Source of the DNA: an uncultured Verrucomicrobiota bacterium
GTDB taxonomy: Bacteria; Verrucomicrobiota; Kiritimatiellia; CAIKKV01; CAYSLU01
Reading direction: 5' to 3'
NCBI GenBank assembly: GCA_964431965.1
Contig: CAYSLU010000004.1
Span: forward strand, 3,824 to 67,823
DNA length: 64,000 nt
Of this stretch, positions 5,641 to 62,321 are shown one piece after another; the first letter of the stretch is position 1; each line of letters starts with the position of its first letter. The notes beneath the pieces were generated by a model, which did not search any database, was not told where the DNA came from, and saw only the letters and a list, made by a program, of their open reading frames with translations. The position numbers and the translations under genes were made by a program.

Positions 5641-5687
5641 AGCCGATCTCCTCTCGTCGAGCCTTCGCCGTCCGCCCGCTCCGCCCG

Positions 5688-6704: not shown

Positions 6705-6728
6705 TTGATAGTCACACCCCTATCTTGT

Positions 6729-6743
6729 CGATAAGGCTTATCG
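6729..6743. promoter_or_regulatory. Perfect 7-1-7 palindrome CGATAAG-G-CTTATCG in the promoter region of the minus-strand sialidase-heparinase-GH2-sulfatase operon (candidate operator)
   Basis: Seen directly in the 123-bp intergenic region between 6704 and 6828. LacI-type and GntR-type regulators are encoded in the window. No binding data. Confidence 0.25.
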
Positions 6744-6827
6744 CGCTTGCCCAGCCGCCCGAGCGACTCCGGGACCAGCGCCAGATCCATCATGCACAGC
6801 AGCCTGGGCTTCGTGCTCATACGCACC

Positions 6828-8324: not shown

Positions 8325-8326
8325 GC

Positions 8327-10699: not shown

Positions 10700-10776
10700 G
10701 ACGGCCTATCCTCTCTTCAAATGCCCGAGTGTCGCAAGCCGGCGACCTCGCACCGGCCCGCATCGCCGCCGCCCTG

Positions 10777-13850: not shown

Positions 13851-13988
13851 GCGGTGGATTCTCTCAAATGAGGCGCGCGGCTGGCTATATGAATCGTTTT
13901 ATATGAGCACGCGCGACGCCCCCACAGCCGGAGCCCCGCCCACATGAACGCAACGCGCGGCCCCAGAATCACATCGGGCGGGCGCCGG

Positions 13989-16451: not shown

Positions 16452-16650
16452 GTGACGTCTCCTCCTTGTCGCGTCCAACCCAATGGGGATGCTCCCATTC
16501 CACAGCAGCGAGGCAAAGCTCATTCTTCGTACCGCGGAGTCGCGGATTGACGGGGAGGCCGAAAACCGTTTTGATCTGCCCGAACGAATCCACCGGAGTC
16601 TGCGCGCGCCGGCGCGGGAGACCCGGACCAACAGATCAACCCGGATCCAC

Positions 16651-19374
16651 ATGAGCCACACTATGCGTCGCGCCTCTGCCGCCGTTCTGTCCGCCATCAG
16701 CATCTCCCTGTCGTCAGCCGCGGCGGAGAGCTCACTGCCCACCCCCCGTCTGGCGCCGGTCGCCGGCACGACGTTCCGCCTGTGCGACGGGCTCACGATC
16801 CTGGTCAACAACCCCAAGGGCTCGGCGTTCACCCTCGGGCTCGACGTGCGCGACCTGAACCTGATCGAGACCGGCCCGCGCGAGGTGCTGCTCAAGGTCT
16901 ATGATCCCGAGGGCAAGGCGCTCGTGCGCGAGGTGATCCCGGACGACGGCGTGGTCACGCCGATCGGCCAGTCGCCGACCGGCGGGTGGGATCACGAGGG
17001 CTGGTACTACCTCTACCAGAACAAGAGCGGCGCCCCGCCCATGCTCCGGTGGTCTGGCCGGGCCGCGCCCGATCGCCTCGCCGCAACCCCGGCGCGCATG
17101 CTCGAGCGGAGCATCCCCGCGGGCAAGCCCGGCGCGTATCGCATCGTGGTGGTCGGCACGCGCGACCATGTCGCGTCGATCCGGATCGACCCCGCCCTCT
17201 CGTGGGCCGTCGCCGGGAACCCCTTCTTCCTCCACCCGGCGGGCGATCTGCTCAAGAAGAGCTTCATCTACGTGCCGCGCGGGACGCTGGGACTCAGCCT
17301 GGCTTTCATCGAGTACGACCGCCCGCGCACGCGCACATACTCCCTCCGCGACGCCTCAGGCGCGGTCATCTGCTCCGGCCTGGCCACCTCCGGCGTCTCG
17401 TTCGCCGAGGCCAAGCCCGCCACCTCGAACGCCTGGGACGACCAGGTGTTTACGTTCGAAGTCGGCGACGGCCCCGGCGAGTACATGGTGCAGTGCGCGC
17501 TGCTGTCGGCCAAGCCCCCGCCCCCGACGCGATCGGCGCAGGCCGCGGTCCAGGCTTTCTTTGCGCCGGACAAGGCGACCGCCGCGGCGCTGAAAGGCGG
17601 CGTCATCTGGGCCGACGGCCAGCGCTTCTACCTGCCCCAGCAGGTTCGCCTCCACCAGTGGCTGAAGACCATCGCCACGAATGACTTCGAGGTGCGGAAC
17701 GCCGACGGAAAGCCCGCGAAGCTGGTCAAGATCACCCCGAGGGACTGTTCCACGAGCCCCGCCTACGACATCACCCCCAACACGAACGCGGCCTTCCGGC
17801 CACTCAACGGCCCGCACGAGCCGGCCCCGATCTCGGATACGATCATGTTCAGCTACGGCCTGCACAAGAACCCGCAGGCACTCAACGTGGCCATCCGCGA
17901 CGTCGCGCAGGGCCTGCGCCTGATGGGTCCCGGCGACTTCCCCGTCAGCACGACGTGGAAGGGCATGGACAACATCGCCTACCGCTTCGGGACCTACGGC
18001 TGGCACTGGTGGCGGCCGGGCTGGCGCATCCTGCAGCAGTCGGACGCACCCGCCGAGGTGAAGGACATGCTGCGCGAATCGTTCGTCAACGCGGCCGACC
18101 GGCTCGCGTTCGTGCACAACGCGGAGCGGGTCAACGGAAACGCTTTCGCCACCGTCGTCTGCGGCCTGCGATATGCGGTGGAGGGCACCGGTGATCCGCT
18201 CGTTCGCGAGCTGTTCGAGACCTTCTACCAGCGCTTCACGACCGGCGGCTGGGGGCCGCGCGTCGGGCTGGGGCCGACGGGCCTGATCCAGGAGGAGTTC
18301 GCCTACGAGAACCACTACGGCTCGTACGCGGTGGAGACGTGGGGCGCGGTGGCGGCGGACCTGAAGGACGAGCGGTTCATCCGCGCGCGCGACGGCATGC
18401 TGAACGTCTTCAGCTACACGCTGAACGACGAGGTGAACGCGAATCCCTTCAACGCCCGCACCGCCCACGGTCCGGCGTTCAAGCCCGAGAAGGAAGGCCG
18501 CTTCGCGTGGAAGGGCTATCCGGGGCCCGATCTGACCGAGAGCATCAACGGAGCGAACGAGTTCTTCGCCGCCCGCCGGAAGGGGTACTACATGCTCACG
18601 TACCACGGCCGGATGACCCCGAAGTGGCAGAACGACAGCTTCATGGGCCAGATCGGCTGGAGTGGCGGCACGATCTGCCAGCTCGTCGTCCCCGGCAAGG
18701 GAACCGTTCTCGCCGGAACGCTGGACGCGCCCGGCTACGGGAAGAACATGCACCCGTCCCAGTGGCGCACGTTCCGCATCCACTCGCTGGTCGGACAGAC
18801 CGCCGACGGCAAGCCGCTGGTCTCGTCGGACAGCGAGCACCTCGACGCGACCCTGAAGGGGGACACCGTCACCAGCTCGGGCGAGGTTCGCGAGTCGTCG
18901 GTGGTCGCCACGCGCTCCTACACGTACAACGCGGATTGCGTCGTCGCCGAGGTGAGCCTGCGCATGACGGCCGATGATGCGTTCCAGAGCTTTTGGTTCA
19001 AGAGCCCGTTCCGCGGCTACGTGGCCGAGGCGTGGGAGATGATCCCCTTCGTCGCCCAGCGGAGCGGACGGGCCGCTCGGGATGCGAAGGCCGAGGACAG
19101 CCGGACCAAGGTCACGGTCCTGAGCGCCGCCGGCAAGGAGCTGGGCGAGCTCGCCGCCACACCGCTCGAAGGCCAAGTCGTCGTCATCGACCGCGGCGGC
19201 TACGGCGTCCGCATCGAGCTGGAGAAGCCGGCCCCGCTCATGCGCGGCGCCGGCGACACGGTGATGATCCAGGCCATCGCCCCGAGCCCCCTCGGCCCGC
19301 GCGACCCGGACAAGGAGCCGCCCAACGCCGGCGCCGTGTCGCTCCGCTACAAGCTCGTCCCGTTCGGGGCGTGA
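16651..19374 (+). CDS. Large secreted protein of unknown function (paralog A of a two-member family in this window)
   Basis: The track ORF is 16483..19374. Start trimmed to the ATG at 16651 (MSHTMRRASAAVLSAISISLSSAAA, a signal peptide). Shares long conserved blocks with 43551..46127 (GWDHEGWYY, SFIYVPRGT, NGANEFFAARR, MHPSQWRTFRIHS, TSSGEVRESS). Divergently transcribed from DUF4838 paralog 2. Confidence 0.7.
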   Translation: MSHTMRRASAAVLSAISISLSSAAAESSLPTPRLAPVAGTTFRLCDGLTILVNNPKGSAFTLGLDVRDLNLIETGPREVLLKVYDPEGKALVREVIPDDGVVTPIGQSPTGGWDHEGWYYLYQNKSGAPPMLRWSGRAAPDRLAATPARMLERSIPAGKPGAYRIVVVGTRDHVASIRIDPALSWAVAGNPFFLHPAGDLLKKSFIYVPRGTLGLSLAFIEYDRPRTRTYSLRDASGAVICSGLATSGVSFAEAKPATSNAWDDQVFTFEVGDGPGEYMVQCALLSAKPPPPTRSAQAAVQAFFAPDKATAAALKGGVIWADGQRFYLPQQVRLHQWLKTIATNDFEVRNADGKPAKLVKITPRDCSTSPAYDITPNTNAAFRPLNGPHEPAPISDTIMFSYGLHKNPQALNVAIRDVAQGLRLMGPGDFPVSTTWKGMDNIAYRFGTYGWHWWRPGWRILQQSDAPAEVKDMLRESFVNAADRLAFVHNAERVNGNAFATVVCGLRYAVEGTGDPLVRELFETFYQRFTTGGWGPRVGLGPTGLIQEEFAYENHYGSYAVETWGAVAADLKDERFIRARDGMLNVFSYTLNDEVNANPFNARTAHGPAFKPEKEGRFAWKGYPGPDLTESINGANEFFAARRKGYYMLTYHGRMTPKWQNDSFMGQIGWSGGTICQLVVPGKGTVLAGTLDAPGYGKNMHPSQWRTFRIHSLVGQTADGKPLVSSDSEHLDATLKGDTVTSSGEVRESSVVATRSYTYNADCVVAEVSLRMTADDAFQSFWFKSPFRGYVAEAWEMIPFVAQRSGRAARDAKAEDSRTKVTVLSAAGKELGELAATPLEGQVVVIDRGGYGVRIELEKPAPLMRGAGDTVMIQAIAPSPLGPRDPDKEPPNAGAVSLRYKLVPFGA

Positions 19375-38259: not shown

Positions 38260-39960
38260 TCATGCGTGGTCAAGGAGCACGTCGCCGGGGATCCAGCAGT
38301 GCGCGCCGCTCGCATGCTCCGCGAAGGGCTCGAGTTCGAGCGCGCCGCCGGCGGACCAGCGGAGTCGCCACCGGCCGGCATCCGACTCCACGGCGGGCAG
38401 CTCCGCCGGTCCGGCGCCCATCGAGAGGAGCCAGAGCCCGGCCAGCCGCTTCGGCGCCGCGCCAGACCACGTGTACGCATGGTCCCAGCGCCACTCGCGC
38501 TCACCCGCCGCGCCGCAGGACGACCGCACGTCTCCTTCGAGCGGTCGGAAGGCGAGCGTGAGGACAGACGCGCCATAGTCCAGCAGCACGCGCTGCCAGC
38601 CGCCGGTTTCCTCGGCCGCCGGTGAACTCACCGTGGCGGACACCAGGCGGAACCGGTCAGTCACACACGGCCAGCCGGGCGCAACGGCATCCAAGCGGCG
38701 AAGCGCCAGGAAGACCGATCCTCGGCGAAAGCCGAACGTGCGACCCACGGCCGCCTCGGGGCAGTCGTCCGAGAGCACGCACGACGGTCGGTCGTGCCGC
38801 CCGCGCGCCGGCAGGGCGCGCACAGTCCCGCGCTCCTCTGCTTCCCACTGCAGGTAGCCCCAGTCGCCGCGCCGGTGGTGGAACGCGACCGGCATGCTCT
38901 GCCAGTGCAGGCCCCACCCGGTGTGGTCGGTGTCCTCCATCACGGGATACCGCGACATCACGCCGATCCGCCAGTCAGGCTCAACCTGGGCCAGCGCGAC
39001 GGCGCCGTCGTAGCAGGCGATCTCCACGGCGCCCCCCGGCGCGCGAGCCGCTCCGAGCCGCTCGCGGAGCCCGCGCCGGTGCGCCAGCGCGGCCATGCAC
39101 TGGAAGCTCGCGCCGGCCTCGCGGACGGCCGCATCGACCATCAGGTCGCGGTACGGCCGGCACCACCCCTCTCGGCGCTCAGGCGTCCAGGGCGACTCCT
39201 GCATCGAGTAGCACCGGATGGTCGGAACGCGCGGCCCGCCCGCATAGGTCATGTCGATGTCGTCCAGCTCGCGCAGCAGGGCCTCGACGACGGCCGCCGT
39301 TTCGGGCGGCAGACGCTTCGCCAGCAGGAGCAGCGCGACCAGCTCGCCCTGCGCAACCTTGGCGTACAGGTCGCTCAGGTGCTCGCCCCAGCCCCACTCG
39401 CGGTCGCGCCAGTAGGCCACCGCCCGCGCCATCATCTCCTCAACGGCGGGGTCGTTTCGCTCCTCGAACAGCTCCATCAGCAGCCAGCGGCAGACCAGAT
39501 CGCCGAGGCACATGTTCGGATAGCGCAGCCGGCTCTCGTCCAGCCCGTCGGTCTGCCGGCGGAACCAGTGGACGCAGTCGCGCAGCATCTCGTCCAGCAC
39601 CGCCAGATCGTCCGGCGCCAGCAGGCGCCCGGACTCGATCCGCAGCATCAGAAGGCCCAGCCCGGTGAAGAAGCCGCTGTTGGTGTCGGTAACCCCGACG
39701 TCCTCCCACTTCCACCAGAAGCAGCCGCGCTTATCGCCGTCCCGCACTTGCGCCTCTCGGATCCGGCGCAGAGCGCGGCCGGCCGGCACCCGATCCAAAG
39801 CGCCGTCAATGCCGGCGGATGCCAGCCGCCACGCGCTGGCCCGGATGATGTGGACGGGATCGGGCTTGCCGGTCTTGCCGTCCTCGTGCTGAACCCAGAG
39901 CCCCACGTCCTCATCCCAGCCGGCCAGGTAGGACACCGATGGATCCGACGGTCGCGTCAT
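38260..39960 (-). CDS. Hypothetical protein (Trp-rich, possibly alpha/alpha-toroid glycan-processing enzyme)
   Basis: 566 aa ORF with normal composition and no signal peptide. Function not recognised. Confidence 0.45.
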   Translation of the reverse strand: MTRPSDPSVSYLAGWDEDVGLWVQHEDGKTGKPDPVHIIRASAWRLASAGIDGALDRVPAGRALRRIREAQVRDGDKRGCFWWKWEDVGVTDTNSGFFTGLGLLMLRIESGRLLAPDDLAVLDEMLRDCVHWFRRQTDGLDESRLRYPNMCLGDLVCRWLLMELFEERNDPAVEEMMARAVAYWRDREWGWGEHLSDLYAKVAQGELVALLLLAKRLPPETAAVVEALLRELDDIDMTYAGGPRVPTIRCYSMQESPWTPERREGWCRPYRDLMVDAAVREAGASFQCMAALAHRRGLRERLGAARAPGGAVEIACYDGAVALAQVEPDWRIGVMSRYPVMEDTDHTGWGLHWQSMPVAFHHRRGDWGYLQWEAEERGTVRALPARGRHDRPSCVLSDDCPEAAVGRTFGFRRGSVFLALRRLDAVAPGWPCVTDRFRLVSATVSSPAAEETGGWQRVLLDYGASVLTLAFRPLEGDVRSSCGAAGEREWRWDHAYTWSGAAPKRLAGLWLLSMGAGPAELPAVESDAGRWRLRWSAGGALELEPFAEHASGAHCWIPGDVLLDHA

Positions 39961-39974
39961 ATGCTCCTCATTCG

Positions 39975-40070
39975 CGGGCGGCGAGGCCTCCGCCCCTCCC
40001 GCCGCGCGACTCTCGGCTGCCGCGCGATCTCAATCCCTCAACGGGCCAGCCCGCGGCCTCGCCGGGCCTG
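39975..40070 (+). repeat. REP-like element, degenerate copy D
   Basis: GGGCGGCGAGGCCTCCGCCCCTCCCGCCG...CAGCCCGCGGCCTCGCCGGGCCTG aligns with the three copies at 42.7-43.5 kb. Lies in the intergenic region between two minus-strand genes. Confidence 0.5.
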
Positions 40071-40087
40071 ACCATGGCAGGAGCGAC

Positions 40088-42643
40088 TCACCGCGGGCGG
40101 TCGGCCGCACCGCTGATCCGGATCTCGCGCTCGAGCCACAGCCGTTTCTCATCCCGTGGCACGGACGCGCGAGCGGTCTCAACGGAAACGCGCAGCATGC
40201 CGTCCGCCAGCCTCACGCTCCCGCCGATGATCGCCGGGGCCACGTACCGGTCGTCTACGACGCAGCCCGCCGACGGCAGCGCCACCCGCAGCGCAGTCGT
40301 GCTCGCGGGCAGCCGGCCAACCAGCACGCGACGCGGCTTGCCTGCCTTCTGGCCCTTCACGCGCGCGGGCACCTCATTGGAGGGGGAGAACGCCACCGCG
40401 GTCCAGACACCGGAGGTTGACATCGCCTCAATCGCGACGCCGGTGACGTTGGTGCCGACCGCGTATTCCGTGACGTGCGCACAGCGCGTGAAGTCGTTGC
40501 CCGGCAGCCGGCTGATCGCCTGCGAGCCGACGGTGATGCGGATCACGCCGTCCTCCGTCAGCTCCACGCGCTTGCTCGCGCTCTGCTTCACGCTCGATCC
40601 GGAAACATGATCCGTGTCCATCGTCACAGACGTTTCGGTCGGCACGCCCGAGACCATGCCGTAGGTCCAGGATGGATACACCCGCTCCACGGCTCCGCCG
40701 ACCGCGGGCCATCCTTCTTCGTCGGTGTTGGACGACACCCGCAGCAGGGGCCGGCCGCGGAACTCGATCTGCCGGATGCGCAGGCCGATGGCCGACGCAA
40801 CGCGGACCGCGACGTCGCCGCGCCGGAGCGTAACCAGCGGCCCTCCGTGCGAGGCGAGGAACAGCTCGTGGTAGTGGCGGTATGCGCCCCACTCGCGCGG
40901 GCTCGCCTGGCGCGCGTGCTGGCAAAGCCGCAGCGCGCGGTCGAACGTCCAGCCGCCCGCCGCCACGTTGGTGAGGTCCGGGCGGATCAGCCGCCCGTCG
41001 GCCTCGGCCAGCGGGCCGGGCCGCCACAGGTCGAACGCGTCCAGGCTGACGGCGGCCTCCTCGACCCGGCGGGCATAGGGCTCGCGGCCGGCGGAGAGCC
41101 GGCGCGCGTCGTCCATGAGCCCGCGCTGCTTCGCCATGCGCTCGCGCCCGAGGTACGCGCGGGCGATCGGCCCGCGCTCAGCGAACTCGTCGAGGTGGAC
41201 CTGGTTCGTGAGCGCCGTAGCGGCGGCGTCCTCCAGGTCGGCCACGTACGCGAGGAGCGGCGCGGCGGCCGGCCCATAGTAGCCCGCGCAGAACTCGCGC
41301 ACGAGCGCATCCGGATCGCCCGCCGGATCCCACAGGAGGTGGCGCCAGACGTAGTTCTTCAGCACCACGAGATCGCCGCCGGTCGATACGTAGTTGCCCT
41401 GGATGATCAGGCCGCCGACGCCCGACTCGGCGTAGTACCGCATGTTCGCGGCAATCGAGCGGATGACCGGAAACGGGTACATGAAGTTGTCGCCGAAGTT
41501 GACGGCGTAGTCCCAGACGTGCACGCGACCCGGCGCCAGCTGGCCCCACTTCCGCAGGTTGGCCGCGTACCCCGCGTTGTCCGGACAGTCGCGAACTCCG
41601 TGGATGATGCAGTGCCGCAGGTGGGGGACGCGGGCGACGACGTTCGAGCGCGGCACGGTGAGCGTCGGCGGCGCCTCCATGCTCATGTACGGCATGGTCC
41701 CCACCTGGATGCCCGGAAACTGCGCGTCGAGGATCTCGGCCACGCGGTTGATCATCCGGAGGTTCGTGCCGCCGATGATTCCGCGCCGCTTGCCCTCCTT
41801 GTCCGTCCATCCCTCCTCGAGATAGATCGCCTCGCACCGCTCGCACTCGCACGCGCCGCCGTAGGCGTCGCCCATGCCGGCCATGTAGATCCAGTCGCGC
41901 ACGTTGCCCTTGCGCTGGCGCACCTGCGCGGCCAGCGCGGCCGCCACGGCGTCGGCGATGCCGGGCGCGCTGTAGCAGAAGTGGATCTGGTTCGCCGCGC
42001 GGCGGCCGGTCTTGCGACTGAACGGCAGGATCTCGGGATGGGAGGCCGCGTACGACTCGAGCAGCGCGTTGAGCGTGTGCCCGCCCGTCCAATCCTGCGT
42101 GCTGAAGCTGCGCGCCTTGAAGCGGAAGCCTCCGTCCTTGGACTCCGCCTCGCGGTTCATGAGCAGCATCTGCCGGAAGGGCGGGCGCTTCACCGTCTCG
42201 CCGGGATCCAGCCGGACCGTCGGCGAGCGCGGCACATCCTCCTCGGTCGCGGACCACCAGCGGCACCCGAGCCGGTCCTCGAGGAACGCGAACACGCCGA
42301 ACCGCACGCCGGTTCGCGTAGCGCCGCCGATTTCGAGGCTCTCCTCCGATACCCGGATCGCATAGGCGTCGCCCGAGCCCGTCCAGTCGCGCCCGTCGGG
42401 ATAGCCGACGCGGATGCTCCGGCCCGCCGCCGGTGGCTCGTTCGTGCGCACGGCGAACGCGGCGCCGGATATTCGCTCCAGGTACTGCGCCAGGTTGGTG
42501 GCCGCCTCCGCGTGCCCCCTCGCCGCGAAGATCGGGCACGCGTTCGTCCCGTTCTCGACCAGCACGAGGCCGGGACCGGGCGCGGCCAGCGCCGTCGCGG
42601 CGACTGTGGCGATGACGATTGCAGTCTTGGCTATCAGATGCAT
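40088..42643 (-). CDS. DUF4838-like putative glycoside hydrolase; paralog 3 of 3
   Basis: The track ORF is 40088..42892. Start trimmed to the ATG at 42643 (MHLIAKTAIVIATVAATALAAPG, a signal peptide). The upstream extension is a translation of REP repeats. Conserved FAFLEDRLGCRWW block. Cys-rich segment GGACECERCEAIY. Confidence 0.65.
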   Translation of the reverse strand: MHLIAKTAIVIATVAATALAAPGPGLVLVENGTNACPIFAARGHAEAATNLAQYLERISGAAFAVRTNEPPAAGRSIRVGYPDGRDWTGSGDAYAIRVSEESLEIGGATRTGVRFGVFAFLEDRLGCRWWSATEEDVPRSPTVRLDPGETVKRPPFRQMLLMNREAESKDGGFRFKARSFSTQDWTGGHTLNALLESYAASHPEILPFSRKTGRRAANQIHFCYSAPGIADAVAAALAAQVRQRKGNVRDWIYMAGMGDAYGGACECERCEAIYLEEGWTDKEGKRRGIIGGTNLRMINRVAEILDAQFPGIQVGTMPYMSMEAPPTLTVPRSNVVARVPHLRHCIIHGVRDCPDNAGYAANLRKWGQLAPGRVHVWDYAVNFGDNFMYPFPVIRSIAANMRYYAESGVGGLIIQGNYVSTGGDLVVLKNYVWRHLLWDPAGDPDALVREFCAGYYGPAAAPLLAYVADLEDAAATALTNQVHLDEFAERGPIARAYLGRERMAKQRGLMDDARRLSAGREPYARRVEEAAVSLDAFDLWRPGPLAEADGRLIRPDLTNVAAGGWTFDRALRLCQHARQASPREWGAYRHYHELFLASHGGPLVTLRRGDVAVRVASAIGLRIRQIEFRGRPLLRVSSNTDEEGWPAVGGAVERVYPSWTYGMVSGVPTETSVTMDTDHVSGSSVKQSASKRVELTEDGVIRITVGSQAISRLPGNDFTRCAHVTEYAVGTNVTGVAIEAMSTSGVWTAVAFSPSNEVPARVKGQKAGKPRRVLVGRLPASTTALRVALPSAGCVVDDRYVAPAIIGGSVRLADGMLRVSVETARASVPRDEKRLWLEREIRISGAADRPR

Positions 42644-42687
42644 TTGCACGCTCTTCCCTCGGGCGCAAGCCTTCAGCGCACCACTTG

Positions 42688-42780
42688 CGGGCGGCGGGGC
42701 CGCCGCCCCTCCCGCCGTTCGGCTCTCCGCAACCGCGGATCTCACCCCTCGCCGGGACGGCCCGTGGCCCCGCGGGCCTG
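42688..42780 (+). repeat. REP-like element copy A (about 95 bp, two GC-rich hairpins)
   Basis: CGGGCGGCGGGGCCGCCGCCCCTCCCGCCGTTCGGCTCTCCGCAACCGCGGATCTCACCCCTCGCCGGGACGGCCCGTGGCCCCGCGGGCCTG. Hairpin 1 is GGCGGCGG/CCGCCGCC. Hairpin 2 is GGCCCG...CGGGCC. Confidence 0.7.
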
Positions 42781-42826
42781 ACTCTGTCCAGAGCCAGCCA
42801 GGCTCGCGCCTCCTGCGCTCCGTCCA

Positions 42827-42920
42827 CGGGCGGCGGGGCCGCCGCCCCTCCCGCCGTGCGGCTCTCCGCAACCGCGCGATCTCAGCCCTCACCGGGACGG
42901 CCCGCGGCCTCGCGGGCCTG
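42827..42920 (+). repeat. REP-like element copy B
   Basis: Near-identical to copy A, same orientation, 46 bp downstream of it. Confidence 0.7.
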
Positions 42921-42955
42921 CTCCTGTCCAGACCACGCCAAGCATGCGCGATCCA

Positions 42956-43429
42956 TCACCACCGCAGTTCGTTCAGCGTTCCCTGATATGCCCATTCTTC
43001 CGGTTGCGTAACCAACCCCCGACGCACTGGATTCCGCATCACGTAATCCCATTTCATTTCGTAGTGGTGCACGTGTCGGAGCTGCGTATCCCAGCAGTCG
43101 CGCATCCATAACGGCCGAACCTCGGGGATCTCTCGGCTGACCATGCGTTTCCAGAATCCGACCCATTCCTTGACGCCTTCCGTGTCCGGCTGTGCCGGGG
43201 AACAGAAGAGATGCACATGCTCCGGCATCACGACGTAGCGTCCGACACTCCAGCGGCGCGCCGCCGCCCACTGGCTTCTCAGAAGCTGATGCATCCGGTC
43301 GTTCGCCAGGACAGGCCGCCGATCCTTGCTGCAAACCGTCACGAACACGATGACCGGCTGATTCCACCGTTCGATGTTCGGCATGTGCGCCGGACGGTGA
43401 CGCCGCTGTTGTGTGCCTTGCTCAGTCAT
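42956..43429 (-). CDS. REP-associated tyrosine transposase (RAYT, IS200/IS605-like Y1 transposase family)
   Basis: HuH motif VMPEHVHLFCSP. C-terminal CWDTQLRHVHHYEMKWDYVMRNPVRRGLV resembles the RAYT helix region (FWDHxIR...DYIHYNPVKHGLV). The track ORF extends to 43513 through REP copy C. The likely start is the internal Met (MTEQ..., about 43429) or MPNIERW (about 43384). Exact coordinate is uncertain by a few nt. Confidence 0.7.
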   Translation of the reverse strand: MTEQGTQQRRHRPAHMPNIERWNQPVIVFVTVCSKDRRPVLANDRMHQLLRSQWAAARRWSVGRYVVMPEHVHLFCSPAQPDTEGVKEWVGFWKRMVSREIPEVRPLWMRDCWDTQLRHVHHYEMKWDYVMRNPVRRGLVTQPEEWAYQGTLNELRW

Positions 43430-43455
43430 GTGCCCAAACTTACGCCTGTCACTCT

Positions 43456-43548
43456 CGGGCGGCGGGGCCGCCGCCCCTCCCGCCGTTCGGCGCTCCGCAA
43501 CCGCGGATCTCACCCCTCACCGGGACGGCCCGTGGCCCCGCGGGCCTC
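43456..43548 (+). repeat. REP-like element copy C
   Basis: CGGGCGGCGGGGCCGCCGCCCCTCCCGCCGTTCGGCGCTCCGCAACCGCGGATCTCACCCCTCACCGGGACGGCCCGTGGCCCCGCGGGCCT. Same orientation as A and B. Lies immediately upstream of the RAYT start. Confidence 0.7.
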
Positions 43549-43550
43549 GG

Positions 43551-46127
43551 CTACGGCCCCGACGCCGACGGGCCGATGTAGGGCTTCAGGCGATAGGTCA
43601 GCGCCACGGACGCCACGTTGGTCGGCGCGTCCACAAGGCGCACCAGCACGGTGCTGTTGCTGCCCCGCATGACCGGCATCGGCTGCTCGAACTCCACACG
43701 GCATCCGTAGCCGACGCGGTCGATCTCGACCGCGGAGGCGCGGACCGGGGCCGCTCCGAGCGGGCCGATCACGCGGCCGGCTTCGTTCAGCGCGAAGACG
43801 CGGGTCGCCGGCTTCGGCTTCCGACTCTTCCGCTCCTTCTCGGTCGCATCCGCGAACGGAATCATCTCATAGGCTTCGCGCACCCGGCCCCGCAGCTGGC
43901 TCCAGCCGCCGTAGAGGCTGAACAGCCCATCGGCTGCCGACGGCTCGAGCCGCACGCCGCAGACGATCGAATCCTCCCGGAACTCATAGCGGCGATAGAC
44001 CTGCACCGAGGACTGGCGGACCTCGCCCGAGCTGGTCACCACGTTGGTCGCGAGCCGCGCGTCTACGTGCTCGCTGTTGGCCGACACGAGCGGCTGGCCG
44101 TCTTCGGTCGTGCCGACGACCGAGTGAATGTGAAATCCGCGCCACTGGGACGGATGCATCCCGCCGCCGTAGGCGCCGTTGAGGGTGGCGGCGATGACCT
44201 GTCCCTTGGCGGGGACGTGAACCTGGCAGAGCATGCCGCCGCCGTAGCCGACCTGGCCGTGGAAGCCCTCTCCCACCCACGTGGGCGACAGGCGGCCGTG
44301 GTACGTGACCGCGTAGTACGTCGGCCGCCGCGCCGCAAAAAACTCGTTGGCGCCGTTGACGGAGGCCGTCAGGTTCGACCCGCCGATGCCCTTCCACGCA
44401 TAGGCCCCCGGCTGCCACATGTCGTACGTGCCGCCGGCCACTCCGCCCGCCGTGCGCGAACTCCACGGGGCCGCATCGAGCCCGTCGGCATAGACATAGC
44501 TGTAGAAACTGAGCACGCCGGCGTAGGCATCCGCGAACCGGCGATCGCCCAGGTCGGCGAGGACCGCCTGCCAGCCGCGCAGCACGTAGCTGCCGTAGTT
44601 CTCGTCGTACCCGAAACTCTCCTGGATGCCCCCGGACGGACCGATGCCCGCGCGATCGCCGAAGCCGCCGTCCGCGAACCGGTCCCAGTAGGCGTCGAAC
44701 AGTTCCTTCTGGAGCGGGTCGCCGCTGGCCTCCGCGCAGTAGCGGAGCGCCTGCACGAGGCTCGCGAGGGCGTTCCCGTTCACCAGCTCGCCGGTCCGGC
44801 AGAATGCCAGCCGGTCGCCGACCTGGATGATGAACTCGCGGATCGCCGCCTTCGCCGGCTCCGGCGCGTCCGACTGCTGGAGGATCCGCCACGCCGGCCG
44901 GTGGTAGAAGAAGCTGTAACACCCCATCTCGTACGCCAGGTTCTTCATCGGCCCGTGGGCGATCACGTCGCCGGGCCCCATGGCGTTCAGGCCGTTCGCC
45001 ATATCGCGCAGCGCGGCGCGCAGGGCCAGCGGGCTCCGGTTGGCCGGATAGCTGTGCATGATGCGGTCGGCCGAGTGGCGCGCGGGAGTCTGGTGCGAGC
45101 CCGGCGAGACGTAGTTCGTTCGCGCGGGCAGGTCGGCCGGCAGCTCGGCCGGATCCGCAGGCAGGGCGCGCAGCCAGTCGTGGAAGCGTACCTGGTAGGG
45201 ATGCCAGAACGTTCGTCCGTCGTGGTAGATGGCCCCCCCCTGCAGGGCGCGCGCCGTCTGCGCGTCCGGCGCGAACACGGCGTTGACCGTGTTGTTGGGC
45301 CGCTTGGCCGGCGGATCGCTGAACATGCCGAAGCAGGCGGCCGCGAGGAAGTCGCCCGGGCCGGGCGAAACGTCGAGCGTCAGCACCTGGTCGTCGTACT
45401 GGCCCGGGGCGGCGAAGTAGCCCAGCTTCTGGAGCGCGCCGTCGTACTTCAGCTCGATGGGCTGCCCCTGCGGATCGCGCAGCACGAACGAGCGGGACGC
45501 CGGCCAGTCCATTTCCAGAAACAGGATCCACACCTTCGTCGCGCCGCGCGGCACGTACAGGTAGCTACGGCGGTACTGGTCCCCGCGCCCGTGCAGCCAG
45601 TAGCCGGTGCTGGCCAGGCCATACGGCCGCACGGGGTCCAGGCGCAGGGTCACGAAATGATCGGGAACGCCCGTCACGAGCACGCGGTATGCGCCGGCCG
45701 GGCCCGCGGGCACGGGATAGCGCAGCAGGCGCTTCGGCACAGCCGCCAGGCGCGCCGGATCGGAGAGCAGGCTCCAGCGCACCGCCGGCTCCAGCCCGCG
45801 CGAGTAGCACGTGGCGTAGTACCACGCCTCATGGTCCCAGCCCGCCGAAGCCGGCTGGTAGCCGCCGCCGGGGATCCCGTCGTCCGGAACCACCTCGCGC
45901 ACCAGCAGCCTGCCGTCGGGCGCGTAGATCTTCACCAGAAGCTCCGCCGGACCGCGGGCCACATGGTTGATGTCCTGAATGTCGAGGCTGACCGTGAAAC
46001 CGGCGCCGGAGGGATTAGGCACAAAGGCTTCGAAGCCGTCGTATAGACGGCGCGCGGGCTCGTCCGCCCCCGCGGCCGTCACGGCCAGCCCGGCCATGGC
46101 CACCGCCAGGCACGTCAAGCGCCTCAC
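43551..46127 (-). CDS. Large secreted protein of unknown function (paralog B; family of 16651..19374)
   Basis: 858 aa. Signal peptide MRRLTCLAVAMAGLAVTAAGA (GTG start overlapping the GntR stop, GTGA). Conserved blocks shared with paralog A (GWDHEAWYY, SYLYVPRGAT, NGANEFFAARR, MHPSQWRGFHIHS, TSSGEVRQSS). Confidence 0.7.
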   Translation of the reverse strand: MRRLTCLAVAMAGLAVTAAGADEPARRLYDGFEAFVPNPSGAGFTVSLDIQDINHVARGPAELLVKIYAPDGRLLVREVVPDDGIPGGGYQPASAGWDHEAWYYATCYSRGLEPAVRWSLLSDPARLAAVPKRLLRYPVPAGPAGAYRVLVTGVPDHFVTLRLDPVRPYGLASTGYWLHGRGDQYRRSYLYVPRGATKVWILFLEMDWPASRSFVLRDPQGQPIELKYDGALQKLGYFAAPGQYDDQVLTLDVSPGPGDFLAAACFGMFSDPPAKRPNNTVNAVFAPDAQTARALQGGAIYHDGRTFWHPYQVRFHDWLRALPADPAELPADLPARTNYVSPGSHQTPARHSADRIMHSYPANRSPLALRAALRDMANGLNAMGPGDVIAHGPMKNLAYEMGCYSFFYHRPAWRILQQSDAPEPAKAAIREFIIQVGDRLAFCRTGELVNGNALASLVQALRYCAEASGDPLQKELFDAYWDRFADGGFGDRAGIGPSGGIQESFGYDENYGSYVLRGWQAVLADLGDRRFADAYAGVLSFYSYVYADGLDAAPWSSRTAGGVAGGTYDMWQPGAYAWKGIGGSNLTASVNGANEFFAARRPTYYAVTYHGRLSPTWVGEGFHGQVGYGGGMLCQVHVPAKGQVIAATLNGAYGGGMHPSQWRGFHIHSVVGTTEDGQPLVSANSEHVDARLATNVVTSSGEVRQSSVQVYRRYEFREDSIVCGVRLEPSAADGLFSLYGGWSQLRGRVREAYEMIPFADATEKERKSRKPKPATRVFALNEAGRVIGPLGAAPVRASAVEIDRVGYGCRVEFEQPMPVMRGSNSTVLVRLVDAPTNVASVALTYRLKPYIGPSASGP

Positions 46128-47221
46128 GTCTTGGCGTCCTCGAGCACGCTATGCGCCAGCTCCGGCGGAAGCAGGAGCGTCTCCGGAGGGAGGTCCGGCG
46201 CCACGATCAGCCGCAGCAGCAGATCGCCGGCCGCGACGACCATGGCCTCGAGGTAGGCCTCCAGCCGGACGATCGGAACGGGGAAGAACACGTTCAGCCC
46301 CCGATTGGTCAGCGCGACGACCATCACCCGCCCCGGAACGTCCACCCCGCATGCGAGCGCCGCCTGCGCGATCCCCTTCGCGACGCTGTCCTCGGACACG
46401 ATCACGGCATCCACGTCCGACTCGCGGCGCCAGAACTCGCTCATGACGCGGTAGCCCCACTCCTCATGCCCGATGTCGGGCGGCACGTCGGGCGAAGGCT
46501 CGAGGAATGAAACGCCCTCCCCGCCGAATCGTCGGCGCAAATCGTTCGGATCCAGCGCCCGGCCGTGCACGACGAACATGGGTCGGCGGCGGCCGCCAGC
46601 GCGGGCCTGCGCCAGCGCGCGCTCGAAGAACGCGTTGAGATCCACATACACCCGATACGGCGCCGCGACGCTGCCGATCTCCACATGCGGCACGCGATAC
46701 CGAGCCCAGTGGCTGGTCTTCATGTGCCGGTAGGCAAAGCTGCTCTGGACGGTCAGCAGCCCCTTGAGCTTGCCGGCCTCCAGATCTTCCACGAGCGCGG
46801 CGGGCAGGCGCGTGGCCGAGAGCGGGTCCTCCGAGTAGACCCGCGCTTCCATCCCGCACCGCTGGAAATAGGCGGACCCGCAGTCGACCGCCGCGTGGGT
46901 GAGCGGCGACCGCTCGTGCGCCGTAACCATTCCCCCCGCAAGGATGGCCACGCGATCCCGGATATGCGTCGCCCGGACGAACGTGCCGCGGCCGCGCATG
47001 CACTCCAGATACCCCCGCTCGGTCAGGTGCTGCACCGCGCGGTGAAGCGTCACGCGGCTGTGCGGATAGAGATCCTCCAGCGAGCGTACCGCGGGAATCT
47101 GATCGCCTTGCTTCCACTCGCCGCGGTGAATCCGGACGAGCATATCGTCGGCGACAAGCTGATACGCATGCCTCGGCTCGCCGGACGATTGCGAGATTGT
47201 CATAGGACACTCTAAACACAA
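46124..47221 (-). CDS. GntR-family transcriptional regulator with C-terminal periplasmic-binding-protein-like (LacI-type) sugar-binding domain
   Basis: N-terminal wHTH YQLVADDMLVRIHRGEWKQGDQIPAVRSLEDLYPHSRVTLHRAVQHLTERGYLECMRGRGTFV. The start may be the ATG at about 47203 (MTISQSS). Confidence 0.75.
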   Translation of the reverse strand: MCLECPMTISQSSGEPRHAYQLVADDMLVRIHRGEWKQGDQIPAVRSLEDLYPHSRVTLHRAVQHLTERGYLECMRGRGTFVRATHIRDRVAILAGGMVTAHERSPLTHAAVDCGSAYFQRCGMEARVYSEDPLSATRLPAALVEDLEAGKLKGLLTVQSSFAYRHMKTSHWARYRVPHVEIGSVAAPYRVYVDLNAFFERALAQARAGGRRRPMFVVHGRALDPNDLRRRFGGEGVSFLEPSPDVPPDIGHEEWGYRVMSEFWRRESDVDAVIVSEDSVAKGIAQAALACGVDVPGRVMVVALTNRGLNVFFPVPIVRLEAYLEAMVVAAGDLLLRLIVAPDLPPETLLLPPELAHSVLEDAKT

Positions 47222-58790: not shown

Positions 58791-58998
58791 CCCGGTCGGT
58801 CGCGCGTTCTCACCCGGCTCGGGCATCGACGGGGTTCCGGCCGGCCGTCTGCTCGCGGGCGGCTGAGGTGGCCCGCCGCGACGGGACACGATGGCTCGAC
58901 ATCGACGGGCCGAACCGTATCATATGTCCGCGTTTTCGGGACCCCGCCCGCTCCCGGCGTGCGGCGGCCCGGCGACCCGATTAAGGAGAAGGGCTTCC

Positions 58999-60984
58999 AT
59001 GAACGATCTGCAGCTTGTTGCCAACACCATCCGCGGCCTCGCGATGGACGGGGTTCAGAAGGCCAATTCGGGGCATCCCGGCATGCCCATGGGGATGGCG
59101 GATATCGTGTCCGTCCTGTACCTCAAGCACCTGAAGTACCACCCGGCCCACCCGGACTGGCCCGACCGCGACCGCTTCGTGCTCTCCGCCGGCCACGGCT
59201 CGATGCTGCTCTACAGCGTCCTGCACCTCGCGGGCTATGACTTCCCGATGTCCGCGCTCCAGTCGTTCCGGCAGTGGGGCAGCCCGGCCGCCGGCCACCC
59301 CGAGGCCGGCCACGCCCCGGGCGTCGAGACCACCACCGGCCCGCTCGGCCAGGGCTGCGGCAACGGCGTCGGCATGGCCCTCGCGGAGCGCATGCTCGCC
59401 GCGCGCTTCAATGCGGCCGGCGCGACCCCGGTCGACCACCGGACCTACGTCCTCGCCAGCGACGGCGACCTGATGGAAGGCATCTCGCACGAGGCGTTCG
59501 CCATCGCCGGCCACCTCGCGCTGAACAAGCTCGTCGTCTTCTACGACTTCAACCGCATCACGATCGAGGGGTCGACCGACTTGGCCTACAGCGACGACGT
59601 GCGCAAGCGCTTCGAGGGCTACCACTGGAACGTGCTCGACATCGACGGCCACGACCTCGCGGCCATCGACGGGGCCATCGCGGCGGCGAAGACCAGCACG
59701 AAGCCCACGATCATCATCTGCCGCACGCACATCGGCCACGGGGCCCCGAACCTGCACGACACGGCCAAGGCGCACGGCGAGCCGCTGGGCAAGGACGAGA
59801 TCCGCGCCGCCAAGAAGAACCTCGGCCTGCCCGAGGACCAGGACTTCCACGTGCCCGACCGCGCTCGCGCGGCCTTCGCCGCCCGCCGCGGCGAGCAGGA
59901 CGCCGCCTTCGCCGCTTGGACGGCCGCCTTCGCCGCCTACCGGAAGGCCAGCCCGGACCTGGCCAAGGCCTGGGACGCGGCCCAGTCCGGCGCGCTGCCT
60001 GACGACCTGTACGCCCTGCTGCCCGCGTTCGACGCGAAGCCGATCGCCACGCGCGCGGCCGGCGGCAAGATCATCCAGTCGCTCGCCAAGGCGATCCCAC
60101 ACCTGATCGGCGGCTCCGCGGACCTCGCGCCCAGCACGCGCACGCTGATCGAGGGGGTTCCGTCCGTGAAGGCCGGCGCGTATGACGGCCGCAACTTCCA
60201 CTTCGGCATCCGCGAGCACGGAATGGCCGCGCTGATGAACGGCATGCTGCTGCACGGCGGCTTCCGCGTGTTCGGGGCCACGTTCTTCGTGTTCCTCGAC
60301 TACTGCCGCCCCTCCGCCCGCATCGCCGCCATCGCGAACCTGCCCGCGATCTACGTCTTCACGCACGACAGCTTCTACGTCGGCGAGGACGGGCCCACCC
60401 ACCAGCCGATCGAGCACATCGCCAGCTTGCGCTGCATGCCCAACATGAGCGTGATCCGGCCGGCGGACGCCACCGAGACGGGCGCCGCGTGGGTCGCCGC
60501 CCTTAAGAACAAGACCGGCCCCACGGCGATCCTGCTCACCCGCCACAACCTGCCGGTGTTCGACCGGAAGTCCTGTCCGCCGGCCAGCCTCGTGGAAAAG
60601 GGCGCCTACGTGATCTGGGAGAGCGCGCCGGGCCAGCCGCGCATCACGCTCATCGCGAGCGGATCCGAGGTCACGCTCGCGCTCGACGCGGCCAAGGCGC
60701 TCTCGAAGGAGCATGCCGTGCGCGTGGTCAGCATGCCGTCGTGGGACCTGTTTGAGAAACAGGACGCGGCCTATCGGAGCCAGGTCATTCCGCCCGACTG
60801 CCCCGTGAAGCTGGCGATCGAGGCCGGCTCGTCCATGGGCTGGGAGCGCTACGTCGGGCCGAAGGGCCGGGTCATCGCGATGGACCGCTTCGGCGCATCG
60901 GCGCCGTACGCCGTGCTGGCCGAGAAGTTCGGCTTCACCGTGGACAACGTCGTGCGCACCGTGCGCGAGATGCTGTCCGCATAG
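58999..60984 (+). CDS. tkt: Transketolase
   Basis: Start at the ATG at 58999 after AAGGAG. ThDP-binding N-terminus VQKANSGHPGMPMGMADI...SAGHGSMLLY, with pyrimidine-binding and C-terminal domains present. Confidence 0.95.
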   Translation: MNDLQLVANTIRGLAMDGVQKANSGHPGMPMGMADIVSVLYLKHLKYHPAHPDWPDRDRFVLSAGHGSMLLYSVLHLAGYDFPMSALQSFRQWGSPAAGHPEAGHAPGVETTTGPLGQGCGNGVGMALAERMLAARFNAAGATPVDHRTYVLASDGDLMEGISHEAFAIAGHLALNKLVVFYDFNRITIEGSTDLAYSDDVRKRFEGYHWNVLDIDGHDLAAIDGAIAAAKTSTKPTIIICRTHIGHGAPNLHDTAKAHGEPLGKDEIRAAKKNLGLPEDQDFHVPDRARAAFAARRGEQDAAFAAWTAAFAAYRKASPDLAKAWDAAQSGALPDDLYALLPAFDAKPIATRAAGGKIIQSLAKAIPHLIGGSADLAPSTRTLIEGVPSVKAGAYDGRNFHFGIREHGMAALMNGMLLHGGFRVFGATFFVFLDYCRPSARIAAIANLPAIYVFTHDSFYVGEDGPTHQPIEHIASLRCMPNMSVIRPADATETGAAWVAALKNKTGPTAILLTRHNLPVFDRKSCPPASLVEKGAYVIWESAPGQPRITLIASGSEVTLALDAAKALSKEHAVRVVSMPSWDLFEKQDAAYRSQVIPPDCPVKLAIEAGSSMGWERYVGPKGRVIAMDRFGASAPYAVLAEKFGFTVDNVVRTVREMLSA

Positions 60985-60991
60985 CCGGCGG

Positions 60992-61017
60992 GGGTCCCGC
61001 GGCCCGCCGCGGGACCC
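60992..61017 (+). terminator. GC-rich hairpin GGGTCCCGCGG-CCCG-CCGCGGGACCC, 8 nt after the tkt stop (no U-tract)
   Basis: Perfect 11-bp stem seen in the sequence. Lacks a T-run, so it could be an attenuator or an RNA-stability element rather than an intrinsic terminator. Confidence 0.3.
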
Positions 61018-61046
61018 TCCGGCGCGATCCGACAGCGAGGGGCCCC

Positions 61047-62321
61047 ATGTCCCGTCTTATCATCCGCGGCGGCAAACGCCTGAGCGGCACCTACACGCCC
61101 AGCGGCAACAAGAACGCCGTGCTGCCCATGCTCGCCGCCTGCACGCTCACCGCCGAGCCGGTGATCCTGCACAACGTCCCGCTCATCCAGGACGTGTCCA
61201 CGATGCTCGAGATCCTCGCGAAGCTCGGCGTGTGCGTGGACCTTCAGGGCCACACCGTCACGCTCTGCGCCAAGGGCCTGCGCCGCACGCGCCTCGATCC
61301 CGAGCTCTGCCGCCGCGTCCGCTCGTCGATCCTCTTCGCCGGGCCCCTCAGCGCCCGCTACGGCCGGGCCGTCATCTTCCCGCCCGGGGGCGACGTCATC
61401 GGCCGGCGCCGGCTCGACACCCATTTCGACGGCCTGCGGTCGCTCGGGATCGAGCTGCAAGGCGGCGACCAGTATCGGTTCCGCCGCCGGACCCTGGCGG
61501 GAACCCGCATCCTGCTCGACGAGGCCAGCGTGACCGCCACCGAAAACGTCATCATGGCGGCGACGCTCGCCGAGGGCGCCACGTCGATCTTCAACGCCGC
61601 CTGCGAGCCGCACGTGCAGGACCTGTGCGCCCTGCTGAACCAGATGGGCGCGGCGATCCGCGGGATGGGCACGAACTGCGTGACCGTCGAGGGCGTGAAG
61701 GAGCTACGCGGGGCCGAGCACCGGATCCAGCCGGACCACACGGAGATCGGCAGCTTCATCGTGGCCGCCGCCGTCACGGGCGGCGAGCTGGTGGTCACCG
61801 AGTCCGAGCCCGACCACCTCGCGCCGGTCGAGAAGGCCTTCCGGAAGCTGGGCATCCGATGGACGGCGGACGGCGGGCGCCTCTGCGTTCCCGGCCGCCA
61901 GCGCCTGCGGATCGCGAGGGACTTCGGGGCGGCGGTCACCAAGATCGAGGACGGCCCCTGGCCCGCGTTCCCGTCAGACCTCATGAGCATGGCGATCGTC
62001 GCGGCGACGCAGGCGTCCGGCACCGTCCTCTTCTTCGAGAAAATGTTCGAGAGCCGGATGTACTTCGTGGACCGGCTGATCGACATGGGCGCGCGGATCA
62101 TCCAGTGCGATCCGCACCGCGTCATCGTCACCGGCCCGGCCCGGCTTCACCGGATGCACCTCGCCAGCCCGGACATCCGGGCCGGCATGGCCATGCTGAT
62201 CGCCGCGCTCTGCGCGAAGGGCGAGAGCGTGATCGACAACGCCCAGGTGATCGCCCGCGGCTACGAGCAGGTCGATGAGAAGCTCTGCGCGCTCGGCGCC
62301 GATATCGCGCGGGCCGACTGA
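61047..62321 (+). CDS. murA: UDP-N-acetylglucosamine 1-carboxyvinyltransferase
   Basis: 424 aa. MurA N-terminus LSGTYTPSGNKNAVLPMLAACTL and the EPT fold throughout. Confidence 0.95.
   Translation: MSRLIIRGGKRLSGTYTPSGNKNAVLPMLAACTLTAEPVILHNVPLIQDVSTMLEILAKLGVCVDLQGHTVTLCAKGLRRTRLDPELCRRVRSSILFAGPLSARYGRAVIFPPGGDVIGRRRLDTHFDGLRSLGIELQGGDQYRFRRRTLAGTRILLDEASVTATENVIMAATLAEGATSIFNAACEPHVQDLCALLNQMGAAIRGMGTNCVTVEGVKELRGAEHRIQPDHTEIGSFIVAAAVTGGELVVTESEPDHLAPVEKAFRKLGIRWTADGGRLCVPGRQRLRIARDFGAAVTKIEDGPWPAFPSDLMSMAIVAATQASGTVLFFEKMFESRMYFVDRLIDMGARIIQCDPHRVIVTGPARLHRMHLASPDIRAGMAMLIAALCAKGESVIDNAQVIARGYEQVDEKLCALGADIARAD

Follow-up and report, generated by a model that had tools for sequence, protein, structure and literature searches.

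A segment of about 3.6 kb (39975-43548) in a 64-kb stretch of contig CAYSLU010000004.1, from an uncultured Verrucomicrobiota bacterium, carries a gene for a predicted REP-associated tyrosine transposase (RAYT, or TnpA-REP) set among short GC-rich repeats with the make-up of repetitive extragenic palindromes (REPs). The whole stretch is referred to below as the window. We read this locus as a REPtron, that is, a chromosomal RAYT (a HuH-Y1 single-strand DNA nuclease/transferase) amid its cognate REPs, and we put the probability of this reading at roughly 85%. The REPtron concept, RAYT genes flanked by REPs and REPs lying in frame within tnpA-REP genes have all been described before (PMC6006769, PMC2817692). 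The locus itself belongs to this known kind of system and is of modest interest as such: beyond a variant REP foot, GGAG, it is an ordinary REPtron.

The RAYT gene and its REP doublets

The RAYT gene occupies positions 42956-43429 on the minus strand and codes for 157 amino acids, with the HuH motif H71-V-H73, the catalytic Tyr129 and N133-P-V. The NCBI gene call for the same gene starts at Met16 and gives a protein of 142 amino acids (P0001). The longer start is backed by full-length homologues of 157 amino acids, and neither start overlaps a repeat. The open reading frame (ORF) contains the motif HVHLF and a Y-x3-NPV helix, its Tyr motif reading YVMRNP, and it matches the NCBIfam model NF047646 (REP-associated tyrosine transposase, REP_Tyr_transpos) with an E-value of 7e-22 and 77.9 bits over positions 10-145 of the 146 in the model. 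Among solved structures the best match was PDB 4ER8, the E. coli TnpA-REP bound to a REP hairpin (E-value 2.4e-8). In this alignment, which is local and ends at chain residue 135, with the E. coli segment around E161 lying outside it, H71-V-H73 aligns with H59-M-H61 of the E. coli protein, and Y129 and N133 align with Y115 and N119. An AlphaFold (AF2) model built with 26 homologues reached a mean predicted local distance difference test score (pLDDT) of 88.9, and Foldseek also returned 4ER8 as its best fold match, with a template modelling (TM) score of 0.68 and a root-mean-square deviation (rmsd) of 2.4 Å. An alignment of 14 homologues shows no variation at H71, H73, Y129, N133, P134 and V135. 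Taken together, the alignments and the modelled fold identify the ORF as a predicted RAYT-type Y1 HuH transposase (TnpA-REP). A first-pass annotation of the window had made the same call from the HVHLF motif and had named the lack of HuH and Tyr catalytic residues as a refuting test; these residues are all present.

A repeat search of 39975-43548 returned four plus-strand direct copies of a GC-rich unit, each of which contains two hairpins. As written on the plus strand, hairpin 1 is GGGCGGCG-GGGC-CGCCGCCC and hairpin 2 is GGCCCGYG-GCCY-CGCGGGCC. Read on the minus strand, hairpin 1 gives the element that we call REP-a (CGGCGGGAG / GGGCGGCG / GCCC / CGCCGCCC), and hairpin 2, read on the plus strand, gives REP-b (CGCCGGGAC / GGCCCGTG / GCCC / CGCGGGCC). 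REP-a and REP-b have their foot and loop in common, lie in opposite orientations and differ in their stems by compensatory changes. Each REP is 25 nt long and consists of a 5'-GGGA(G/C) foot, an 8-bp GC stem starting with GG, a GCCY loop and the return stem. The two are arranged head-to-head over a linker of ~40 nt and form an inverted doublet of 91-94 nt, and it is this whole unit that is present four times. The two hairpins per unit are as the first-pass annotation had described them, and its four near-identical, same-orientation units around the ORF were recovered as well. Its contrast between such same-orientation copies and the inverted pairs of classical REPs dissolves, since each unit is itself an inverted REP pair. 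We conclude that the unit is a REPIN/BIME-like doublet (REP doublet forming a hairpin; bacterial interspersed mosaic element) of two REP subtypes, with the doublets repeated directly. Direct-orientation doublets are the normal layout of a REPtron, as described in PMC6006769.

The evidence for the hairpins is their repetition and covariation and not their folding energy, because whole-unit folding z-scores are weak (-0.4 to -2.7) against a background of 70% GC; folding energy was dropped as a support for this reason. The doublet can fold either into two hairpins or into one long imperfect hairpin of about -33 kcal/mol. Covariation was assessed on 12 different REPs of 25 nt, taken from the window and from five further loci by a filter that required a hairpin. 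Within this hairpin-filtered set the foot, stem positions 1, 2, 4 and 8 and the loop GCC(C/T) are invariant, and double compensatory changes occur in three of the eight stem pairs. Paired cells amount to 97.9%, a value reached by none of 500 shuffles, and to 38-55% when the partners are slid by 1-3 columns. The set thus combines the features by which REPs are defined, namely a short GC-rich palindrome, a conserved unpaired 5' foot and compensatory change. Two further candidate features of the repeats were rejected. A CT cleavage dinucleotide was sought at the unit ends; the right ends all read GGGCC, then T, and the left ends are without CT, so no cleavage site is proposed. The GGGAGG foot was considered as a Shine-Dalgarno sequence for the RAYT gene; its distance to the ATG, over 50 nt in the window and ~35 nt in a homologous locus (L001), speaks against this.

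Unit boundaries and identities were set by gapped alignment of the four plus-strand copies, one of which lies upstream of the RAYT gene, two downstream and one a gene further away. Copy 4 (43457-43547, 91 nt; REP-a 43457-43481, REP-b 43522-43546) lies 5' of the RAYT start, and its REP-a is oriented like the RAYT gene and ends 27 nt ahead of the ATG. On the other side, 3' of the RAYT stop, are copy 3 (42828-42919, 92 nt; REP-a 42828-42852), whose plus-strand REP-b (42894-42918) has a perfect 8-bp stem and a GCCT loop, and copy 2 (42689-42779, 91 nt; REP-a 42689-42713, REP-b 42754-42778). Copy 1 (39976-40069, 94 nt), between the stop of a DUF4838 gene and the start of a gene for a 566-aa protein, is degenerate: its REP-a (39976-40000, read on the minus strand) has one stem mismatch, and the foot of its REP-b (~40043-40068, read on the plus strand) has decayed to GGGCC. 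Pairwise identity is 97.8% between copies 2 and 4, 93.5% for copies 2 and 3 and for copies 3 and 4, and 81-86% between copy 1 and the others. A 29-nt core, GGGCGGCGGGGCCGCCGCCCCTCCCGCCG, has four matches in the window at up to three mismatches and none in 100 dinucleotide-preserving shuffles, and the region of the second hairpin has three matches in the window where none is expected. Each of the four units falls between genes, all of them co-directional on the minus strand, in agreement with the intergenic placement in the first-pass annotation. The linker contains a small third hairpin, TCCGC-AACC-GCGGA (42725-42745 in copy 2), which is conserved in copies 2-4.

Homologous loci and dispersed REPs

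A protein search returned 94 homologues of the RAYT, of which the few named ones come from metagenome-assembled genomes (MAGs) of Kiritimatiellae, Verrucomicrobiota and Planctomycetota; several homologues carry the JGI annotation 'REP element-mobilizing transposase RayT'. A wider search without a word index gave 3821 clusters, defined at 50% identity, with E-values of at most 1e-3, 790 at 1e-10 or below and 82 at 1e-30 or below. We compared six loci whose RAYTs are 41-61% identical to that of the window (P0003/L016, P0007/L017, P0014/L018, P0034/L001, P0063/L037 and P0030/L040). In all six, the RAYT gene is flanked on both sides by same-orientation inverted doublets of GGAG-footed REPs, which begin with 5'-(T/G)GGAG and continue directly into a GC-rich hairpin. 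The doublets are head-to-head in L018, as in the window, and tail-to-tail in L016, where a 6-nt spacer leaves one clean long hairpin (z -4.8). The arrangement of gene plus doublets is therefore conserved in seven genomes, the window included. Together with the foot, the loop and the covariation, this common layout bears out the earlier proposal that the flanking repeats are REP-type elements of the RAYT. A sense REP directly upstream of the RAYT start was tried as a conserved rule and rejected; read by eye, it holds in five of the seven loci and fails in L017 and L040. An AT-rich array of palindromes spaced by 31 nt (TTTTTCCAAYGRTTGGAAAAA), unrelated to the REPs, lies 3' of the RAYT locus in one Kiritimatiellae MAG (L017:3742-3850).

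REPs were also found within the RAYT coding sequences of relatives. A REP (L018:3458-3491) or a whole doublet (L040:~2895-3022) lies in frame between the HuH and Tyr motifs; the insertions add 16 to ~50 residues to P0014 and P0030, and similar ones occur in P0029 and P0058. Among the 150 listed matches of the representative search, 23 align to the query in two separate stretches, a pattern consistent with in-frame REP insertions. Such insertions are distinctive of TnpA-Y1 subclass 2.4, with some in subclass 2.8 (Quentin 2018, PMC6006769).

The position of orthologous RAYT genes was followed across samples. P0014 is found on 11 contigs from different samples, and all contigs that reach past the gene have the same neighbours; the longer P0028 contigs have one upstream gene in common. 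With the orthologues P0014 and P0028 each at one fixed locus across samples, the RAYT appears to be domesticated and not IS-like. Many of the P0028 contigs (L044-L052) are only ~0.8 kb long and break just outside the gene. Contig breaks beside this gene are the pattern expected with multi-copy flanking repeats.

To these fixed genes can be added REPs that lie elsewhere. Among GTDB species genomes, 14 contigs contain the exact 25-nt REP-a, and 13 of these are from MAGs of the Planctomycetota-Verrucomicrobiota-Chlamydiota (PVC) group; by a rough estimate, about one match is expected by chance in the whole genome collection. Three of these contigs belong to one Kiritimatiellae MAG, four to one 'Verrucomicrobiota' MAG and two to one Lentisphaerae MAG. 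No RAYT gene was present at any of the 14 sites within the 1.2-8 kb examined per locus. At least nine of the sites are intergenic, five of those nine lying between convergent genes, and at several the REP has another inverted partner than in the window. We conclude that REPs of the GGAG family are dispersed in related genomes, away from RAYT genes.

These data bear on the possibility that the locus is an autonomous IS200/IS605-type insertion sequence (IS), in which the transposase and the flanking hairpins, as left and right ends, move as one. A homologue of Y1 HuH transposases that lies between hairpins would fit such an element, as would the base composition of the RAYT gene: its GC content of 0.60 and third-position GC (GC3) of 0.72 lie below the window's GC of 0.70 and the neighbours' GC3 of ~0.9, as foreign DNA might. 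However, RAYT GC is also under locus GC in six of seven related loci, and because the low GC3 is common to the RAYTs of these relatives it seems to be a trait of the family as a whole (from low expression or weak codon adaptation) rather than the trace of a recent transfer. The protein scores 23.2 bits against the NCBIfam IS200 model NF033573, which has a cut-off of 55, compared to 77.9 bits against the RAYT model. Its Tyr motif is the YxxxNP of the RAYT class and not Y-x3-Q (PMC6006769 Table 1), and the modelled fold is nearer to 4ER8 than to the TnpA proteins of IS608, ISDra2 and IS200, with TM scores of ~0.50 and rmsd of 5-9 Å for the latter. Instead of a left end and a right end that differ, the flanks are direct copies of one doublet, and further copies are found on the far side of host genes. 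The locus has no tnpB beside the RAYT gene, orthologues keep to one fixed locus across many samples, and in relatives the REP is present without the RAYT gene. We consequently give next to no weight to an autonomous IS.

A mechanism for the REPtron can be proposed from the E. coli system. E. coli TnpA-REP binds the REP hairpin, reads the GTAG foot base-specifically, and cuts and rejoins single-stranded DNA; A3 and G4 of the foot are proposed to pair with the CT cleavage site, and W99 is wedged between A3 and T2 (PMC3479197). By homology, the RAYT of the window would recognise the REP as a hairpin in single-stranded DNA, through the base of its stem and, base by base, through its 5' foot. It would then cut nearby through Tyr129 with the HuH-bound metal, after which the strand would be rejoined. 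In this way doublets could be mobilised or amplified in trans while the RAYT gene stays in place. REP-b, much as the second type of REP in a BIME, might be bound without being cut. That the RAYT binds and cleaves its REPs and is active today is what we infer for this locus, as would be any influence on the transcripts of nearby genes.

Several observations weigh against the REPtron reading. The NF047646 score falls ~2 bits short of the model's cut-off of 80, and the Pfam Y1_Tnp model (PF01797) gives 21.6 bits against a cut-off of 23; thus the profile search suggested in the first-pass annotation did match both the RAYT and the Y1_Tnp profiles, both just under their curated cut-offs. The feet, GGAG in REP-a and GGAC in REP-b, are not the canonical GT[AG]G (or CGTC), and REP-b may not be a cleavage substrate, because any single change of the foot abolishes cleavage in E. 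coli (PMC3479197). In the RAYT, Gln95 of the E. coli protein is replaced by Met. Scans with the core and the second hairpin found no copy of the unit in the other 60 kb of the window, and other foot-plus-hairpin sites of REP type elsewhere in the window do not exceed chance level. The exact doublet with its linker was found nowhere else in the genomes and metagenomes scanned: the matches of the genome scan have other partners and linkers, and in the metagenomes a pattern specific to the doublet (the tail of REP-a and the linker) gave nine matches, none with a hairpin and all of them chance GC-rich sequence. Dispersal is seen for the REP core in related genomes only, and a genome-wide REPIN population in the source organism, which the count of copies named as a test in the first-pass annotation was meant to reveal, is putative. 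Finally, copies 2 and 3, which are 139 nt apart, appear to have arisen locally, by tandem duplication of a 139-nt segment and not by two separate insertions, because ~30 nt of additional right flank is common to both (CTGTCCAGA.CCA.GCCA.GC..GCGC; 42780-42827 and 42920-42955).

Some of these points could reflect a decaying relic, in which the RAYT is inactive and the local doublet cluster arose by tandem duplication and drift, with no current mobilisation. The confinement of the four copies to 3.6 kb, the duplication indicated by the common flank of copies 2 and 3, the degeneracy of copy 1 and the replacement of Gln95 by Met would all suit a relic, and genomes in which REPs accumulated near the rayt gene and not genome-wide are on record (Nunvar et al. 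2010, PMC2817692). A low abundance of flanking repeats, with ~14 occurrences of the 16-mer per replicon, has also been reported for group 4 RAYTs (PMC5581495). Against a relic, the RAYT ORF runs uninterrupted over its full length and retains every catalytic residue, and the two most similar copies, 2 and 4, stand on either side of the gene. Substitutions at the Gln95 position are common in the clade, where Leu, Ile, His, Gly and Lys occur, and Met at this position was for this reason rejected as a mark of inactivation. We consider a relic unlikely and retain the REPtron as our reading of the locus.

The variant foot and the foot-binding segment

The GGAG foot of REP-a keeps A3 and G4 and differs from GTAG only at position 2, and it stands in the same register as the GTAG of three distant relatives (L039, L041 and L043). 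In E. coli, the residues that contact GTAG are W94, Q95, E100, H101 and R104, according to Quentin et al. 2018 (PMC6006769). We compared this segment between RAYTs with different REP feet. In all seven RAYTs with GGAG-footed REPs, Trp occupies E. coli position 99 and a residue other than His stands at position 101; six of the seven read W-Q-x-D-C/F-W-D-T-Q-(L/V)-R, the window protein with Met for Gln, and P0007 has W-G-R. F-D-H is found in the three distant RAYTs (P0074/L039, P0079/L041 and P0086/L043), which are 34-37% identical, and in all three cases the REPs beside the gene have a canonical foot, GTAG or GTGG. The switch of the foot goes along with the replacement of His by Thr at E. coli position 101. 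Of the 147 representatives that were new among the best 150, W-D-T occurs in 63, W-D-R in 20 and W-D-V in 7, and the His forms are rarer (F-D-H in 5, F-H-H in 5, W-D-H in 2) and found mostly among the weaker matches. The correlation between the foot and residue 101 is suggestive, and a contact between residue 101 and base 2 is putative only.

At least 82 clusters at 50% identity match the RAYT with E-values of 1e-30 or below, and the named members seen all belong to the PVC group (Kiritimatiellae, Verrucomicrobiota and Planctomycetota). We tentatively propose, as a possibility that falls a little short of probable, that these proteins form a sizeable undescribed RAYT subclade in which the foot went from GTAG to GGAG along with a change of the foot-binding segment, from the W-E-H of E. 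coli (W99-E100-H101) or F-D-H to W-D-T or W-D-R. If true, specificity would have switched naturally here, with the A-G that is proposed to choose the CT cleavage site left in place. Were the protein change the cause, it would also offer a ready enzyme-substrate pair for studying how RAYTs read the foot. In the searchable literature we found no description of GGAG-footed REPs, nor of REPs in Kiritimatiellota; GTAG repeats have been reported in the verrucomicrobium Opitutus terrae (PMC3733652). At the level of the clade, the variant foot and the correlated protein change appear undescribed.

RAYT-REP systems have been studied almost entirely in Proteobacteria, with GT[AG]G taken as the canonical foot, and the locus and its relatives extend their range to Kiritimatiellota and the PVC group. 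The host of the window belongs to this poorly characterised group, probably to Kiritimatiellota; the first-pass annotation had supposed a lineage in which such elements are little characterised. The correlated substitution falls within the foot-binding segment, as known from the E. coli structure, and amounts to a natural experiment on foot recognition and on the co-evolution of RAYTs with REPs. In practical terms, REP finders that demand GT[AG]G would miss the GGAG family, and curated cut-offs of hidden Markov models leave the RAYT protein unnamed.

Genomic setting and comparison with known systems

The repeats lie in a minus-strand array made up of a 566-aa ORF, the DUF4838 protein, the RAYT ORF and an 858-aa ORF. 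The DUF4838-family gene (40088-42643, minus strand; Pfam PF16126, E-value 1.5e-52) codes for a protein with a signal-peptide-like N terminus and is outside the element. The neighbours had been described as highly expressed-looking secreted-enzyme genes; signal-peptide-like N termini on two of them agree with secretion, and 'highly expressed' found no support. The 64 kb contain a single copy of the RAYT gene.

This setting raises the possibility that the repeats are mainly host regulatory or RNA elements, such as 3'-end stabilisers, attenuators, terminators or protein-binding sites, and that their adjacency to a transposase gene is incidental. The intergenic position of all copies in a co-directional gene array, and the location of five of the nine clearly intergenic REP sites in relatives between convergent genes, would be in line with such a role, and E. 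coli REPs have been reported as 3' untranslated region (3'UTR) regulators (bioRxiv 10.64898/2026.03.23.713779; PMC6006769). However, no terminator-like site (hairpin plus T-run consensus) was found on either strand of 39800-43700, and no Rfam family matched in the window at gathering thresholds. A scan for the sigma-70 promoter consensus likewise gave no match. In seven genomes the repeats accompany a RAYT gene, and a change in the protein goes with a change in the REP sequence. A mainly regulatory nature of the repeats is thus very unlikely. A secondary host role would be compatible with the REPtron reading, as an addition to it and not a replacement, and by analogy with E. coli REPs a role of the doublets at mRNA 3' ends is plausible. 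The first-pass annotation had suggested that they may double as transcript-stabilising or terminator-like structures.

Elsewhere in the window, glycan-degradation genes are abundant (466-16895 and 38260-47221), and there are three DUF4838 paralogues (8327-10699, 13989-16895 and 40088-42643). Further genes code for a sulfatase, a GH2 protein, a heparinase II/III-like protein and LacI- and GntR-type regulators, and the housekeeping genes for transketolase and EPSP synthase are found at 58891-62321. This gene content would fit a stretch of chromosome from a Kiritimatiellota-like degrader of polysaccharides.

Of the known systems, the REPtron of E. coli K-12 (tnpA-REP/yafM, with Y and Z REPs arranged as BIMEs) provided the best match in both sequence and fold. 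Both have a single HuH-Y1 gene flanked by inverted pairs of two REP subtypes, each REP consisting of a foot and a GC hairpin, which in E. coli is imperfect, and the HuH, Tyr, Asn and W99-equivalent residues are conserved. The proteins are only 24-29% identical, and the foot is GGAG here and GTAG in E. coli. The stem in the window is short (8 bp) and perfect, without the mismatch bulge that E. coli TnpA-REP needs, and His101, Gln95 and Arg21 of E. coli correspond to Thr, Met and Lys. The REPIN-RAYT systems of Pseudomonas (Bertels and Rainey; groups 2 and 3) likewise have an inverted doublet with a spacer and a single-copy RAYT gene flanked by doublets. Their REPINs, however, number hundreds per genome and have GTGG feet, whereas the copy number here is probably low, and the two arms of the doublet differ here in stem sequence, so that the long hairpin is imperfect.

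In its motifs, the RAYT resembles TnpA-Y1 subclasses 2.4 and 2.7 of Quentin et al. 2018, with (N/D)HVH, WQ, Y-x3-NP and no C-terminal extension domain; subclass 2.4 corresponds to RAYT group 4 of Bertels 2017. The in-frame REP insertions between the HuH and Tyr motifs of the relatives P0014/L018 and P0030/L040 are a further likeness to subclass 2.4. Subclasses 2.4 and 2.7, however, have been described with canonical GT[AG]G feet and mainly from Cyanobacteria and Bacteroidetes. In the REPs of Stenotrophomonas and Xanthomonas (Nunvar 2010), as in those described here, a 4-nt head is followed directly by a perfect GC-rich palindrome, interrupted by 2-4 bases; there the head is GT(A/G)G, the hosts are Gammaproteobacteria and copies number in the hundreds. 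With IS200/IS605 elements such as IS608 and ISDra2, finally, the locus has in common HuH-Y1 chemistry on single-stranded DNA hairpins and a 5' guide tetranucleotide. Those elements differ in that TnpA is a dimer with a Y-x3-Q motif, the left and right ends are distinct and the whole element is present in multiple copies; none of this was seen here.

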